42,721 bases of DNA from a virus (taxonomy: Duplodnaviria > Heunggongvirae > Uroviricota > Caudoviricetes). The notes under the pieces are model-generated. The model ran no database searches. It worked only from the letters and a program-made list of their open reading frames with translations, and was not told the DNA's origin. Below are positions 14,755-20,808 of the stretch, piece by piece. The position numbers and the translations under genes were made by a program. The stretch lies in the IMG/VR virus record IMGVR_UViG_2703718828_000007. The stretch is one strand, 5' to 3'. Within the stretch, counting starts at the first letter, position 1. Every line of letters starts with the position of its first letter.

Positions 14755-15444
14755 ATGAACACTCAATTCCTCGAATACGTGCGCCAGCAGCTGATGGTGG
14801 CTACCGCCGATTTAAGTGGTGCGACGAAAGGGCAGTTGATGGCGTGGCTTGAGAACGCGCAGTTTGATACGGGAACGTTTAAACGTAAGAAGCCTCGAAT
14901 ATTGGATGAAGTGACCGGGAAAATGATTACGCTTGATAACCCACCGATTCCCGGCAAACAGTCGCATACCAAGGGTTCGCATATTCCCTTGGTGCAACCG
15001 GTTGAGTATTCAACGGCATCGTGGCGCCGCGCACTGATGACGCTCGAAGAACACCAGAAGGCCTGGTTGCTATGGAACTATAGCGAGAATGTGAGTTGGG
15101 ATAATCAGGTGCTGATTACTCAGTGGGCGTGGTCGAAATTTTGCGAGCATCTGGCCGGGAGGAAGGTGGCGAAGAAGACCGTCGAACGGTTGCGACAGCT
15201 TATCTGGCTGGCGGCACAGGATGTGAAGGCTGAATTGGCTGGGCGTGATGTCTATCAATATGGTGATCTGGCTGCGCTGGTGGGAGTTAACAAAACAAAC
15301 TGGTCTCAAAATTACGTGGAACATTACAATGTAATTATCAGCCTGTATAAGGGACTCGACTCCAAGGCGCTACTTCATGTTTCGCGATCACGTTCACAAC
15401 AAAAGGCAGCAAACTATCAGCAAGGTATTGCAAAAATGAACTAA
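14755..15444 (+). CDS. Late-gene antiterminator, Q-like (tentative)
   Basis: 229 aa; last gene before PR'-like promoter, tR'-like terminator and lysis region. Confidence 0.45.
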   Translation: MNTQFLEYVRQQLMVATADLSGATKGQLMAWLENAQFDTGTFKRKKPRILDEVTGKMITLDNPPIPGKQSHTKGSHIPLVQPVEYSTASWRRALMTLEEHQKAWLLWNYSENVSWDNQVLITQWAWSKFCEHLAGRKVAKKTVERLRQLIWLAAQDVKAELAGRDVYQYGDLAALVGVNKTNWSQNYVEHYNVIISLYKGLDSKALLHVSRSRSQQKAANYQQGIAKMN

Positions 15445-15456
15445 TTAGCATATATT
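15428..15456 (+). promoter_or_regulatory. PR'-like late promoter
   Basis: TTGCAA, 17-nt spacer, TATATT overlapping the Q-like stop codon. Confidence 0.4.
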
Positions 15457-15490
15457 TCGTGTAAATTTGATATTGTGCCAACAGTATATA

Positions 15491-15516
15491 AACCCGCCAG
15501 TGAGCGGGTTTTTTAA
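15491..15516 (+). terminator. tR'-like rho-independent terminator
   Basis: ACCCGC-CAGTGA-GCGGGT hairpin followed by TTTTTT; about 35 nt after predicted late start site. Confidence 0.6.
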
Positions 15517-15866
15517 TTTTGCGGAATACTTTTTTAATCGCAGAAAAGCATGTCGTTTCGTTTTGATAGGAAAAAACGATGGATAGGCAACACAAGGCTC
15601 TAATGTGCGTAAGTTTGATGGATATGATAATTACGCACAGCTTATCAACAATATTTTGCTATTAGTTAAGTTGTGAATAACTTTTTTTGTTGATAACTCT
15701 TTTTTCTGTGGATAAGTCTGTAGGTTTATTAAATTCTTATGCACAAGTAGAACGCTGATGGTCCTGTACAATCCCGTAAAAGCTTCAATACTGATGACAG
15801 CAATATAAAAACCTATCCAGTGAAGCTATTGAAAACATACAGAATTTAGTTTTCTTCGGGAAAATT

Positions 15867-16622
15867 ATGTCAGGACAGCCTGAGTCAAAAGAACAAGAAC
15901 TGCTTGCAACAATCCTCGATTACTTCCAGAAGGGAGAAGTCCCGGATACAGACACTATTGCGGAAATTGAGCACGACATTGCTAAACTTCCAATAAGTGA
16001 GCGCGCACATGCGTATGCATGGCTTAATGGAACTCTCGGGCGTCACTCTGATGCAGTACGTTTATTCAAAGACGCGATGAGCTCTGGGAGTCCAACGATC
16101 GCACAAAACTACTTGGCGTATCTTTCTCGTTCGGCTCATAACTATGAGCATCGCGTTGAGTTGTTTAGAATAGTTGAGCTTTTCCCTTCACATGAACTGA
16201 GGCTTGTAGCAAGAAACGCTGCATTTTGTATCGGCAACGACAAGTTGGTTAAAAAGTTCTCCCTCAAAATGGCTGCTCTTTATGATGGCCAAGAGCGAGA
16301 GGATATAATCAATCAGGGAAATTATATGGCTGAACAGATTGTTGATTTCAAAAACGCTACCCGTCTTTCTTCTCGAGAACTAGAAGCCCTTTGCGATCAA
16401 GCTGAAGAGATTGCGAACAAGCGCGGTATTAACTGTTCAAGTGTTAGCTATTATCTTGGTGGAGATGATGACAATGCATTCATCGTTAGAGCCCAAACTG
16501 CTGATCCGCAGGTTTTAGCTGAAATGAACATGGAACTGTTGGTTTTGCTCTCAGATGATAGTTATCGGAACAGCCCTTTTACATCCTGGTTCCAAAGCGA
16601 TGAAAAAAGAGGGATTTACTGA
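15867..16622 (+). CDS. Hypothetical protein (251 aa), gene 1 of AT-rich two-gene cassette
   Basis: No recognisable motif; predicted helical; stop overlaps gene 2 start (TGATG). Confidence 0.6.
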   Translation: MSGQPESKEQELLATILDYFQKGEVPDTDTIAEIEHDIAKLPISERAHAYAWLNGTLGRHSDAVRLFKDAMSSGSPTIAQNYLAYLSRSAHNYEHRVELFRIVELFPSHELRLVARNAAFCIGNDKLVKKFSLKMAALYDGQEREDIINQGNYMAEQIVDFKNATRLSSRELEALCDQAEEIANKRGINCSSVSYYLGGDDDNAFIVRAQTADPQVLAEMNMELLVLLSDDSYRNSPFTSWFQSDEKRGIY

Positions 16623-17026
16623 TGAGCGTATCGGGGAAAGATTTTATTGTTTTTGCTGGTAAATGCATTTCTCACAACGATGAAATCGGTTACAGAAACG
16701 CCATTGGTCGAGCGTATTATGGAGTTTATCATGAAACGCTTGATAAGCTTGAGAAATGCCCAAACAAGTCGTCACACCAAGCTGTTCGCGACTATCTTAC
16801 AAATGATGCATGGTTAAAAGGAAATGAGCCGTTTGAAAAAATGAAACTCATTTCTATGGGAACAATGCTGAGACATTTGCATACCCGACGTAAATGGGCA
16901 GATTACGAGCTTGATAGAACTTTAAGTAAGGCTGATGCGGAAGCTATATTGATAATGGCTAACAAAGCTATTGACACCCTTCAGCAGATGTATGAGCAGG
17001 TTTATCCATCCGAACCTGCTGCTTGA
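16622..17026 (+). CDS. Hypothetical protein (134 aa), gene 2 of cassette; tentative HEPN-like R-x6-H spacing
   Basis: GRAYYGVYH segment; translationally coupled to gene 1; terminator follows. Confidence 0.6.
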   Translation: MSVSGKDFIVFAGKCISHNDEIGYRNAIGRAYYGVYHETLDKLEKCPNKSSHQAVRDYLTNDAWLKGNEPFEKMKLISMGTMLRHLHTRRKWADYELDRTLSKADAEAILIMANKAIDTLQQMYEQVYPSEPAA

Positions 17027-17043
17027 TTATCTATTCGAAATAA

Positions 17044-17067
17044 CCTCGCTTAAGCGGGGTTTTTTTA
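17044..17067 (+). terminator. Rho-independent terminator after two-gene cassette
   Basis: CCTCGC-TTAA-GCGGGG hairpin (one G-U pair) followed by TTTTTTT. Confidence 0.55.
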
Positions 17068-17235
17068 TGCCTTCGCACCTCCATTTCGGAGGTATTTTGC
17101 TGTGAAAATGGGCGGCTGGTGGATGTTGGAGCACCCACCAGCCATCAGCTCATGCTTTCAGGTCACAAGCTAACCAAGGCCCATTGCTTTAGCGCAAAAG
17201 CAAAGAGAGCCTATCAGAGTTACGCTTATTGATCT

Positions 17236-18288
17236 ATGAAAAATACTGTAAATATAAACAGTGTCGAGTTAGTCAACGCTGATAGCCTGCAATACATCGC
17301 CACTCTCCCTGATAACTCCATTGACCTGATAGTCACGGATCCGCCGTACTTCAAAGTGAAACCCAACGGCTGGGACAATCAGTGGAAAGGGGATGAGGAT
17401 TATCTTCGCTGGCTTGATATGTGCCTCGCACAATTCTGGCGAGTGCTTAAACCTGCTGGCAGTCTTTATCTTTTCTCCGGTCACCGCCTGGCGGCAGACA
17501 TTGAGATCATGATGCGTGAGCGGTTCAACGTCCTGAACCACATCATCTGGGCTAAACCGTCGGGCCGCTGGAATGGCTGTAATAAAGAGAGTCTGCGCTC
17601 TTACTTCCCTGCAACAGAGCGCATCCTCTTCGCTGAGCATTACCAGGGGCCGTATAAACCAAAGAGCGACGGTTACGCGGAGAAGGGAAGCGAGCTGAAG
17701 CAGCATGTAATGACTCCCCTAATTTCTTATTTCCGGGATGCACGTGAAGCGCTTGGCATAACCTCAAAACAAATAGCCGATGCGACTGGAAAGAAGAACA
17801 TGGTGTCTCACTGGTTCAGCGGTAGCCAGTGGCAATTACCGAATGAATTAGACTACCGGAATCTTCAGTCCCTTTTCACGCAGGTAGCCATCGAAAAGCA
17901 CCAGAACGGCGAACTGGCAACACCACACCACCAGCTGGTGGCTATGTGGCATTCGTTAAATCGCAAGTATTCAGAGCTGCTCGAAGAGTACAAATCGCTT
18001 CGGCGGCATTTCTCTGTTTCCGTATCCGTTCCTTATACCGACGTCTGGACACATAAACCCGTTCAGTTTTACCCAGGTAAACACCCATGCGAAAAACCCG
18101 CTGACATGTTGCGGCAGATCATCAACGCCAGCAGTAAGCCTGGTGATGTGGTGGCTGATTTCTTTATGGGGTCCGGTTCGACCGTGAAAATCGCGCTGGA
18201 ACTTGGCCGCCAGGCTATCGGCGTTGAACTCGAGGAGGACAGGTTTAGCCAGACGGTGGAGGAAATAAGGGCGTTAACAGGGGAATAA
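17236..18288 (+). CDS. DNA methyltransferase, beta-class amino-MTase (N6-adenine or N4-cytosine), orphan
   Basis: Motif IV DPPY near N-terminus (LIVTDPPYF) and motif I FFMGSGST near C-terminus; no restriction endonuclease partner recognised. Confidence 0.8.
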   Translation: MKNTVNINSVELVNADSLQYIATLPDNSIDLIVTDPPYFKVKPNGWDNQWKGDEDYLRWLDMCLAQFWRVLKPAGSLYLFSGHRLAADIEIMMRERFNVLNHIIWAKPSGRWNGCNKESLRSYFPATERILFAEHYQGPYKPKSDGYAEKGSELKQHVMTPLISYFRDAREALGITSKQIADATGKKNMVSHWFSGSQWQLPNELDYRNLQSLFTQVAIEKHQNGELATPHHQLVAMWHSLNRKYSELLEEYKSLRRHFSVSVSVPYTDVWTHKPVQFYPGKHPCEKPADMLRQIINASSKPGDVVADFFMGSGSTVKIALELGRQAIGVELEEDRFSQTVEEIRALTGE

Positions 18289-18294
18289 ACGTGA

Positions 18295-18317
18295 GGTCGC
18301 TCAAGCGGCCTTTTTTA
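18295..18317 (+). terminator. Rho-independent terminator after methyltransferase
   Basis: GGTCGC-TCAA-GCGGCC hairpin followed by TTTTTT. Confidence 0.5.
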
Positions 18318-18356
18318 TTACCTCAATAACACCCGCACACAGCGAGGTGAGAGACC

Positions 18357-18659
18357 ATGAAAATGAATGATTCAGGGAACATTTTCACGCAGTTCTTCGC
18401 GTGGGTAGCAGCTCTGGCGTCAGCCATTGGTTTTACCACTCAGGATATGGTGTTCATGTTCTTTGGCGCCGCTGGTCTGCTTATCTCGTTTGCCTCCTAT
18501 GTCAATGGTCGCGTGGATGCCCACCGCAGGCGTAGAGAGGACGAGAAGCGAACAAAAATGGTTAATGACTACCTGAAAGGCGTTGGTGATAAACCCCTTC
18601 ACGAACGTCCTGCGGCTGCAAGCGTGGTCGTTGAGGCATTACAAAAGGAAGGTGAGTGA
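18357..18659 (+). CDS. Holin (putative, two-TM type)
   Basis: 100 aa; two hydrophobic helices then charged C-terminus (RRRREDEKRTK); overlaps endolysin start. Confidence 0.55.
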   Translation: MKMNDSGNIFTQFFAWVAALASAIGFTTQDMVFMFFGAAGLLISFASYVNGRVDAHRRRREDEKRTKMVNDYLKGVGDKPLHERPAAASVVVEALQKEGE

Positions 18660-19192
18660 TGGGATCCAGAGCAAAATTAAGTGCTGCTGTTCTGGGGTTG
18701 GTACTTGCTGGTGCGCCAGCATCCGTCATTCTCGATCAGTTTCTGAATGAGAAAGAGGGAAACAGCCTTACAGCGTACAAAGATGGCAGCGGTATCTGGA
18801 CGATTTGCCGGGGAGCTACCACGGTTGACGGCAAGCCTGTTACCCCAGGTATGAGGCTATCGCCAGAGAAATGTAATCAGGTGAACGCCAGCGAGCTGAA
18901 CAAGGCGCTGGCTTGGGTCGACCGCAATATCCAGGTACCACTGACCGAACCGCAGAAAGCGGGGATTGCCTCATTCTGCCCGTACAACATTGGTCCTGGT
19001 AAATGCTTCCCTTCTACCTTTTATAAACGCATCAACGCCGGTGATCGTAAAGGGGCATGTGAAGCAATCCGCTGGTGGATCAAAGACGGTGGCCGCGATT
19101 GCCGACTAACCAAAGGCCAGAAGAATGGCTGCTATGGTCAGGTTGAGAGACGGGACCAGGAAAGCGCGCTGGCGTGTTGGGGGTTAGATTAG
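18656..19192 (+). CDS. SAR endolysin (phage lysozyme)
   Basis: N-terminal signal-anchor-release helix ([16 protein letters not shown]), E...D...T catalytic spacing, C-terminal similarity to phage 21-type lysozyme (from memory). Confidence 0.8.
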
Positions 19193-19653
19193 TGAGCCGA
19201 TTAACAGCAATTATCTGTGCTGTCGTTATATGCCTGATGGTTTCCATGGCTTGGGCTATTAACCACTACCGCGGCAACGCCATCACCTACAAAGACCAGC
19301 GCGATAAAGCCATTAAGAATCTTAACCAGGCGAACGCCACCATCAAAGACATGCAGATCCGCCAGCGTGATGCAGCGGTGCTGGATGCCAAATACACGAA
19401 GGACTTAGCTGATGCTAAAAAGCAGCTTGATGATTTGCAGCGTTGTGTTCGCACTGGCAAGTGTGGGCTGCACGTCAACGCCAGATGTCCCGCGAACGGA
19501 GCGACCAGCACCGGCGGCCTGGGCGATGTTACCGGCCCCCGACTTACTGACTCCGCTGAACGGGATTATTTCACCCTCAGAGAGCGAATCGTCACAGTGA
19601 CGAAACAGGTTGGATATTTGCAGGAATACATCAAAGAGCAGTGCTTAAATTGA
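19192..19653 (+). CDS. Rz-like i-spanin
   Basis: GTG start overlapping endolysin stop; 153 aa, strongly lambda-Rz-like ([48 protein letters not shown]). Confidence 0.8.
19412..19600 (+). CDS. Rz1-like o-spanin embedded in Rz in +1 frame
   Basis: 62 aa with lipobox ASVGC and proline-rich body; ends NGIISPSE as lambda Rz1. Confidence 0.75.
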
Positions 19654-19685: not shown

Positions 19686-20090
19686 ATGCAAATAGATCAA
19701 GAATACCTTAAAGGTTTGCTCGAGGCTTTCGAGGCATCGGATTCACCTGATACCGATATTATTCGATTAAATGATTTAGGGTTCAATTGTGAAACTGACA
19801 CATTTGTGTTTCATATGCGTTTGCTTGAGGATAGAGGGCTGATTATCAGGAGTGATGGGGAGCCCGGCTTTGGTGCTATTCAGTCTTTAGACGGAATGAC
19901 TCACTGGGCTGTAATGCCCTTGCGATTGACCGCGATGGGGCATGACTTCTTGGATGCTCTCCGTAACAAAGAGGTTTGGGCAACATTAAAAACCGGATTC
20001 AAAGATGCCAGTATGGGCACGCTGATGACAGTTTCGAAGGAGCTGTTTAACCGAGCTCTTGCTAAGCAACTTGATAAAATGTTCGACTAA
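19686..20090 (+). CDS. Hypothetical protein (134 aa), moron-like
   Basis: AT-rich ORF after lysis cassette, own terminator downstream. Confidence 0.5.
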   Translation: MQIDQEYLKGLLEAFEASDSPDTDIIRLNDLGFNCETDTFVFHMRLLEDRGLIIRSDGEPGFGAIQSLDGMTHWAVMPLRLTAMGHDFLDALRNKEVWATLKTGFKDASMGTLMTVSKELFNRALAKQLDKMFD

Positions 20091-20166: not shown

Positions 20167-20808
20167 ATGGCAACGCTTAAGGACCTTTCCAGTCAGTTAA
20201 GACAGCTGCAGAAGCAAATACCGTTTGCGACTGCCCAGGCTATGACTAAAGTGGTTCGCCAGATAGAAGCGGCCCAAAAAACAGCATTTGAGCGGAATCT
20301 GGATAATCCAACACCTTTTACAGTTAAATCGGTAGGGTCAGTTGGTGCCAGGAAAAACAGCCTTCGTGCGAAGGTGTTTGTTCGTGATACTGCTGCTGGC
20401 TACCTTGAACCCTTCGAGTTCGGCGGAGAGCACAAGCTTAATGGTAGTGCTTTGCTTAATCCGAAAGACATAAAGCTTAATAAATACGGCAACCTGCCGC
20501 GTAATAAGCTCTCTCAGCTCAAAGCAAAGCCAAACGTATTTATTGGTGACGTTGGTGGCGTGAATGCCGTGTGGCAGAGAAAAAAGCCGAAAATCAAAAA
20601 AGGGAAGAAACGGGCAAAACGTTCTCCGAACGGCACGCGCAGAGACAAGATTAAGCAACCTGCACCAAAATTGCTCATTCGGTTTGGAGACGCGCTTCCA
20701 GTCAAACCAACGCTCGGCTATATGGACAGGGCAAACACCATGGTCAACGCATTGTTACCCTCAGCGCTGCACCAGGCGATTGCTGAGGCGATCAGCTCGG
20801 CCAGATAG
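20167..20808 (+). CDS. Hypothetical basic protein (213 aa) upstream of cos region
   Basis: AGGAGG RBS 8 nt upstream; Lys/Arg-rich centre (KKPKIKKGKKRAKR). Confidence 0.5.
   Translation: MATLKDLSSQLRQLQKQIPFATAQAMTKVVRQIEAAQKTAFERNLDNPTPFTVKSVGSVGARKNSLRAKVFVRDTAAGYLEPFEFGGEHKLNGSALLNPKDIKLNKYGNLPRNKLSQLKAKPNVFIGDVGGVNAVWQRKKPKIKKGKKRAKRSPNGTRRDKIKQPAPKLLIRFGDALPVKPTLGYMDRANTMVNALLPSALHQAIAEAISSAR

Follow-up and report, generated by a model that had tools for sequence, protein, structure and literature searches.

Why would a temperate phage carry a DNA methyltransferase gene immediately upstream of its lysis genes, with no restriction endonuclease beside it? The question arises from a 42,721-nucleotide stretch of viral DNA (Caudoviricetes; IMG/VR record IMGVR_UViG_2703718828_000007), hereafter the window, a complete lambdoid prophage that opens with its integrase gene at position 1. 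An earlier sequence-only reading of this DNA had favored an anti-restriction function and had considered, as a less likely option, protection against an effector encoded by the adjoining two-gene cassette. That reading overlooked the homology of the enzyme to M.EcoGII, the backbone status of the gene in the late operon, and the conserved structured leader in front of it. The features of the locus are collected in Table 1.

Table 1. Features of the methyltransferase locus, in window coordinates
Feature	Coordinates	Strand	Evidence or remarks
Q antiterminator, putative upstream regulator of the methyltransferase late transcript	14755..15444	+	PF06323 Phage_antiter_Q, E=1.2e-97; phrog_304
pR'-like sigma-70 promoter, TTGCAA-17-TATATT, overlapping the end of Q	15428..15456	+	Consensus 9/12; putative function, assigned from position
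tR'-like intrinsic terminator, ~30 nt past the promoter	15490..15511	+	8-bp G+C-rich stem, then T run
Moron cassette, context only, outside the methyltransferase unit	15867..17026	+	phrog_17809, phrog_5176; 251-aa and 134-aa proteins
Terminator-like hairpin closing the cassette module	17042..17061	+	Hairpin scan
Terminator-like hairpin at the left edge of the methyltransferase module	17077..17093	+	Sequence varies, stem kept
Conserved structured leader, ~140 nt, directly upstream of the methyltransferase ATG	17098..17235	+	P1, P2-P4, GAGCYTA box
Methyltransferase coding sequence, predicted M.EcoGII-type beta-class N6-adenine enzyme	17236..18288	+	ATG start, 350 aa
Codons of catalytic motif IV, DPPY, residues 35-38	17338..17349	+	Invariant in homologue alignment
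Predicted central helical target-recognition region, ~residues 147-255	17674..18000	+	Approximates the M.EcoGII four-helix-bundle TRD, 160-237
Codons of SAM-binding motif I, FMGSG (FxGxG), residues 310-314	18163..18177	+	Invariant in homologue alignment
Terminator-like hairpin directly past the methyltransferase stop, before the holin	18293..18312	+	Hairpin scan
Lysis genes (holin, endolysin, Rz spanin), same late unit as the methyltransferase	18357..19653	+	Pfam, PHROG

Class and clade of the methyltransferase

The open reading frame at 17236-18288 exists on the plus strand exactly as the sequence-only reading had placed it. Its 350-residue product matches the Pfam family PF01555 (N6_N4_Mtase) over residues 29-340 (E=1.3e-42, 146.7 bits against a cut-off of 26.7), the PHROG family 'DNA methyltransferase' (E=1e-99) and, over its full length, the PADLOC Type II methyltransferase model (E=7e-145). 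The DPPY motif at residue 35 precedes the FMGSG motif at residue 310, so that motif IV lies N-terminal to motif I with the target-recognition domain (TRD) between them. This is the beta-class order of amino-methyltransferases, as had been proposed from the FxGxG arrangement, and both motifs are invariant across an alignment of 25 homologues. Among solved structures, the protein matches the beta-class enzymes M.BceJIV-like 8urk, M.RsrI, M.MboIIA, and CcrM (E = 1e-24 to 1e-13). The catalytic Rossmann halves of these enzymes align with the window protein, but they recognize defined sites and have no similarity to its residues 114-280. Pfam also gives a weak match to HTH_3 at residues 167-197. An AF2 model shows two beta/alpha halves (residues 1-107 and 289-348) on either side of a helical middle (147-255). 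This picture of a split Rossmann fold, at a mean pLDDT of only 65, is of low confidence and adds little.

The description of the gene as an orphan was also borne out. Pfam, PHROG, and PADLOC scans of the named neighbors (NinB-like DUF1367, YbcO, RusA, Q, the two cassette proteins, holin, endolysin, Rz, DUF2513, and terminase) gave no match to a restriction endonuclease or to a PADLOC defence model. No neighboring ORF in related loci gave such a match either, and the pairing expected of a Type II restriction-modification system was found in none of these loci.

A close and well-studied relative of the enzyme is M.EcoGII, a 349-aa beta-class methyltransferase encoded on an E. coli prophage. It acts on adenine whatever the surrounding sequence and deposits non-specific m6A on dsDNA, ssDNA, and RNA (PMC5778455). 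M.EcoGII and its 95%-identical paralogue M.EcoGI come from E. coli O104:H4 C227-11. M.EcoGII is colinear with the window methyltransferase and has in common with it a lambdoid prophage origin and the DPPY - central TRD - FxGxG order, the TRD of the window protein being predicted as helical. The two proteins are 77.5% identical over their full length by global alignment (272 of 348 residues by BLASTP). Over the M.EcoGII TRD, which spans residues 160-237 and forms a four-helix bundle (PMC11551740), the identity is 78%, with differences at 17 of 78 positions. The M.EcoGII sequence used here was taken from a machine-read PDF of Table S1 of PMC11551740, and its 349 residues match the published length.

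The same study provides tested reference points on either side of the window protein. M.EcoGII and the reconstructed ancestors Anc289, Anc291, and Anc284/SUPREM are all active in methylation, and M.EcoGII, Anc291, and SUPREM are largely non-site-specific on RNA (PMC11551740). The window methyltransferase shares 84-85% of its residues with Anc289 and Anc291 and 72.6% with Anc284/SUPREM. As judged from sequence, it is nearer to M.EcoGII and the tested ancestors than the deeper non-specific node is. These pairwise identities, rather than a tree, place it inside a clade bracketed by experimentally non-specific proteins, and it is almost certainly a member of the non-specific M.EcoGII clade. M.PflMI (CCANNNNNTGG), named in PMC11551740 as the nearest relative whose site-specific activity is confirmed, lies outside this clade. 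M.PflMI is also a beta-class Type II methyltransferase in the sequence-similarity neighborhood of the window protein, and is set apart, following the description in PMC11551740, as a member of a restriction-modification system. Non-specificity remains a prediction for the window allele, which differs from M.EcoGII at 22% of residues; this divergence includes the TRD, and the window methyltransferase could have acquired a sequence preference.

M.EcoGII has been placed in "a very large family" of E. coli prophage enzymes (PMC5778455), and Murray et al. named phage 1720a-02 as bearing a very similar enzyme (PMC5778455). RefSeq WP_001767234.1 of E. coli VE-F5 is an exact match (100% identity) to the window protein. 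Identity is 96% with the methyltransferases of two phage isolates, Eeyore and Flotzy, and 77-87% with those of SfV (orf48), mEp460, cdtI, phiP27, many Stx2 phages, and 1720a-02. The homologues in SfV, phiP27, mEp460, cdtI, the Stx2a and Stx2c phages, 1720a-02, Eeyore, and Flotzy are unstudied; they lie at the same position, downstream of Q and upstream of either the lysis genes or stx, and are preceded by the same leader as in the window. Relatives are present in 589 of 5426 complete E. coli genomes. At E<=1e-20 there are 2884 protein clusters, the best 120 of which are all at least 72% identical to the window protein, nearly all at least 78%, and spread over the Enterobacterales.

Late-operon position and the upstream cassette

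From the integrase, the gene order of the window runs recT/recE, CI-like repressor, O, P, DUF1367, YbcO, RusA, Q, lysis genes, and terminase. A consensus scan of the plus strand found no promoter-like site between the pR'-like promoter, which ends at 15456, and the lysis genes. Twelve terminator-like hairpins, identified as consensus matches, fall within 15300-18500, against 3.3 expected. At the left edge of the methyltransferase module the stem is kept as its sequence changes, with CCTCC/GGAGG, CCTTC/GAAGG, and CTGCC/GGCGG among 47 aligned leaders. The SfV and phiKO2 records annotate a promoter and terminators equivalent to those of the window, including tR' and the terminator past the methyltransferase. 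In addition, the order Q - variable slot - methyltransferase - holin-endolysin-spanin, or tRNAs and stx in place of the lysis genes, is conserved across phages. It is found in E. coli VE-F5, Eeyore, a mussel E. coli isolate, SfV, 1720a-02, and the Stx2a phage WGPS2, as well as in Hafnia yong2, Morganella IME1369_02, Serratia OS31, and phiKO2; in Vibrio phage Valp1 the methyltransferase lies directly upstream of holin and endolysin. The methyltransferase is therefore a backbone gene of the lambdoid Q-dependent late operon. The gene order, the hairpins, and the promoter point to Q-dependent late expression, which agrees with the published silence of M.EcoGII in lysogens.

The stretch between Q/tR' and the methyltransferase (window ~15512-17070) holds a different insert in each phage when compared with related loci (L002, L003, L004, L005, and L015). 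These inserts include the HEPN cassette described below, an SDH-family Clp-fold serine protease with a small ORF, a 181-aa ORF, and ~65-aa ORFs (for example SfV orf47), and the HEPN cassette occupies the slot only in the lineage of the window. The slot is a swap site for accessory cassettes, and adjacency there is thus no evidence of functional linkage. The hairpins at 17042-17061 and 18293-18312, which follow the cassette and the methyltransferase, share the core TCGCTNAAGCGG followed by a T run and are 78% identical over 46 nt; the common core could reflect chance or a recombination joint between modules. Further downstream, a DUF2513 protein (19686-20090) and a homologue of the PHROG 'minor tail protein' (20167-20808) lie between the spanin and the small terminase, an unusual location for a tail gene.

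The two cassette genes overlap by one base. The 134-aa product belongs to the HEPN family: of 24 members of the family, 8 match PF05168, a precomputed PF05168 hit exists for one homologue, and the family profile matches a PDB entry named "HEPN domain-containing protein" (E=3e-5). Its invariant residues are R25 N26, R30, H37, H52, R90, and D94 Y95. For the 251-aa product, Pfam, NCBIfam, and PADLOC recognized no domain, and tblastn against the phage collection gave no match. The cassette is a candidate toxin-antitoxin or abortive-infection moron, with no match among PADLOC models, and the insertion site common to the cassette and methyltransferase modules is a known moron site (PMC4104026).

The suggestion that the methyltransferase protects against an effector in this cassette (15867-17026) draws on the adjacency of the two modules on the same strand and on their association in E. 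coli, where all 12 strains with the cassette among complete genomes carry it adjoining this methyltransferase allele. These 12 copies are 99.8-100% identical and therefore represent one recent module. The association breaks down once diverged cassettes are considered. Homologues at 26-57% identity keep the gene pair intact, and no methyltransferase lies within 5 kb of it. The pair occupies prophage ends in Erwinia and in a metagenomic contig, adjoins umuDC in Enterobacter, and in Morganella is situated between Q and holin. Overall, 7 of 10 cassette loci have no methyltransferase and 85 of 88 methyltransferase loci have no cassette (it is present in 3), so that conserved co-occurrence is not found across either set; in other phages the slot holds unrelated genes. 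The homology of the window to other methyltransferase-bearing phages begins at ~17071-17098, just past the cassette terminator, and two terminator-like hairpins separate the modules. Moreover, the recognizable domain of the cassette is HEPN, typically an RNase rather than a DNA endonuclease, and an enzyme that, like M.EcoGII, would be silent in lysogens and harmful if constitutive could be no standing protective partner. The cassette and the methyltransferase are independent modules, and a protective partnership between them is scarcely credible.

The leader upstream of the start codon

The methyltransferase coding sequence is preceded by a leader that is nearly identical among phages with unrelated upstream genes and that abuts the methyltransferase start in all 65 phage records containing it. 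We searched bacterial genomes, one per species, with a degenerate pattern of three invariant boxes (AATGGGCG...AAGGCCCA...GAGCYTA), which found 38 places. At 28 of them, nearly all in Enterobacterales, a methyltransferase homologue (58-94% identical) follows, its ATG exactly 22 nt past the end of GAGCYTA. Another place, in Morganella, runs off the end of the locus, and the remaining 9, in unrelated taxa with no methyltransferase gene, are chance matches. Two loci with non-enterobacterial labels, Limoniibacter endophyticus (L119) and a Geobacteraceae MAG (L120), carry the leader with homologues that are 61% and 94% identical, respectively; the cause here may be contamination or mis-binning and not a genuinely wider host range.

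In 31 of 38 comparisons conservation is higher in the leader than in the coding sequence (median nucleotide identity 86% versus 74.5%), and the leader is non-coding because one-base indels are present in the alignment. The constraint continues into the gene. In codons 2-10 (17239-17265), synonymous sites are near-invariant in 40 diverse homologues (ACT 100%, AAC 100%, AGT 97%), compared with ~40-70% further into the gene, and these codons can form an ACUGU/ACAGU hairpin just past the start codon.

We propose a leader structure, derived from related sequences, in which an invariant long-range helix P1 (UGGGC/GCCCA) encloses hairpins P2 and P3 and is followed by hairpin P4; P2-P4 covary, and the invariant GAGCYTA box is fixed 22 nt from the ATG. 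RNAalifold recovered only P1 and P2 from the MAFFT alignment; P3 and P4 were added manually, then tested against controls and against sequences outside the derivation set. The MAFFT alignment comprises 42 non-redundant leaders, and the structure pairs 84.5% of its cells, versus at most 46% when the partners are slid. Thirteen pairs are changed on both sides, versus 8.7±1.4 in shuffled alignments (1 of 500 reaches this value), and the covariation score is 0.161 versus 0.088 (reached by 0 of 500). A second alignment, which was itself fitted to the structure through a covariance model, gives double changes at 18 of 28 pairs and a covariation of 0.233 versus 0.081. The 31 leaders with less than 95% identity to any sequence of the derivation set have 86.7% of their cells paired, against at most 45% after sliding, and double changes at 17 pairs; one P3 pair, for instance, occurs as AU/CG/UA/UG and another as UA/CG. 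The covariance model, built from the MAFFT alignment, detects a single leader per locus in 79 of 80 further viral contigs, and matches the window only once, at 17087-17241.

The strand of the putative RNA deserves comment. The minus strand of the leader folds slightly better (z = -4.6 versus -3.3), A-C cells outnumber G-U cells in the leader alignment, and a minus-strand promoter-like site at 17267-17240 overlaps codons 2-10. The would-be minus-strand terminator has a tract of only 2-4 U, which is unconserved. We favor an RNA on the mRNA strand over a minus-strand antisense RNA.

Searches of Rfam 15 at gathering score, covering the window and seven related loci, returned no match to the leader, and Rfam in E-value mode on 15400-18400 gave no convincing match. 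The sub-threshold hits to P26 (minus strand, 24.6 bits against 36), Trp-leader, and Leu-leader look like chance or generic terminator resemblance. We also considered whether the leader is the STnc100/anti-sRNA locus of Stx phages. This candidate was rejected: STnc100 lies 3' of stx2B in two Stx2 phages that carry the methyltransferase upstream of stx (L015, 6258-6473; L005, 6946-7158), has no similarity to the window, and is absent from it. The AgvB hallmark CACAACA is absent. Some kinship with the "convergent sRNAs" described by Tree et al. (PMC4104026) is conceivable. A targeted literature search found no description of this leader. We give about even chances to the proposal that 17098-17235, probably together with the first ~10 codons, is an undescribed structured cis-regulatory RNA. 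It may act as a translational gate, as an autoregulatory binding site for the RNA-methylating enzyme, or as a metabolite sensor. The leader may be the only new part of the locus, as the methyltransferase itself is of the already known M.EcoGII kind.

What the methyltransferase probably does for the phage

Taken together, our analysis makes it probable that the gene encodes an M.EcoGII-type methyltransferase with little or no sequence specificity, which is expressed late under Q and masks progeny DNA against restriction. The family, motifs, position, and cassette independence come from the present analysis, and non-specificity, silence in the lysogen, and harm come from the literature on M.EcoGII, which is silent in its lysogen and yields slow-growing, unstable clones when constitutive (PMC5778455; PMC12707154). 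According to this proposal, the methyltransferase would be silent in the lysogen and would be made once Q-modified RNA polymerase reads through after induction, so that phage DNA would be densely methylated as it replicates, shortly before it is packaged. The progeny would thereby reach the next host masked against Type I, Type III, and many Type II systems that are blocked by m6A, and perhaps also against systems in which m6A marks self, of which BREX is an example. The price would be vulnerability to m6A-dependent Type IV nucleases. The structured leader probably adds post-transcriptional control of the harmful enzyme.

The anti-restriction function suggested by the sequence-only reading is also the accepted reading for the family (PMC5778455, PMC12707154), although its benefit is an assumption in the literature too. 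Our literature searches found no report of hypermethylated virion DNA for any phage carrying the gene, and none of the gene improving plating on restricting hosts or having an anti-restriction role in vivo. Phage Mu Mom and the Hia5-type non-specific adenine methyltransferases of Haemophilus phages, the latter cited in PMC5778455, follow the same logic of broad DNA modification by a temperate phage. They differ from the window enzyme in belonging to unrelated folds or families, with different chemistry (Mom) or a different motif class.

Other readings of the gene must be weighed against this proposal. It might encode a sequence-specific orphan adenine methyltransferase that follows a Dam-like logic and either shields the phage only against restriction enzymes sharing its site or regulates phage functions at specific sites. 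Most PF01555 enzymes are site-specific, as the matched structures illustrate, relatives carry the label 'site-specific DNA-methyltransferase' in RefSeq and other sources, and the TRD differences from M.EcoGII noted above point in the same direction. However, these labels are automatic names, the protein falls within a clade delimited by M.EcoGII and by tested reconstructed ancestors more distant from M.EcoGII than the protein itself, and O111 homologues (~93% similarity) are likewise predicted to be non-specific (PMC6602927). We regard a site-specific enzyme as unlikely. An active and non-specific enzyme might instead have been selected for recombination or packaging, late host shut-down, or RNA methylation. 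The activity of M.EcoGII on ssDNA and RNA would suit such roles, as would the placement of the gene with the lysis genes and away from early anti-defence genes, and dense M.EcoGII m6A is reported to enhance RecA-mediated recombination (PMC12403123). The anti-restriction benefit is, moreover, undemonstrated in the literature searched. Late modification nevertheless shields progeny in the next host, which is the classical logic of Mom-like enzymes, and no data favor an alternative role; we consider selection for one quite improbable.

That the gene is an inert remnant in a cryptic prophage is suggested by the description of M.EcoGII as unexpressed and located on a 'cryptic prophage' (PMC5778455). 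This reading is very hard to reconcile with a full-length ORF in which the catalytic motifs are all invariant, with the occurrence of the same protein at 96% identity in the isolated phages Eeyore and Flotzy, and with the complete set of integrase, replication, lysis, and terminase genes in the window. Constraint is also visible in the leader and at synonymous sites of the opening codons. A late-expressed, non-specific enzyme that masks progeny DNA thus continues to be the reading that we prefer.

The placement of this enzyme has consequences beyond a single prophage. Relatives are labeled 'site-specific DNA-methyltransferase' in RefSeq and other databases, and membership of the M.EcoGII clade would correct this annotation. 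Enzymes of the clade are sold as reagents and are used for chromatin footprinting and RNA engineering. The benefit of the gene to the phage has apparently never been measured, and the prophage studied here would be a convenient system in which to do so. If the enzyme is non-specific, phage DNA derived from such lysogens is expected to be resistant to many restriction enzymes and sensitive to m6A-dependent nucleases. The leader, if confirmed, would be a new RNA motif marking M.EcoGII-type genes, and would explain how these phages control a harmful non-specific methyltransferase by keeping it off until the right moment.
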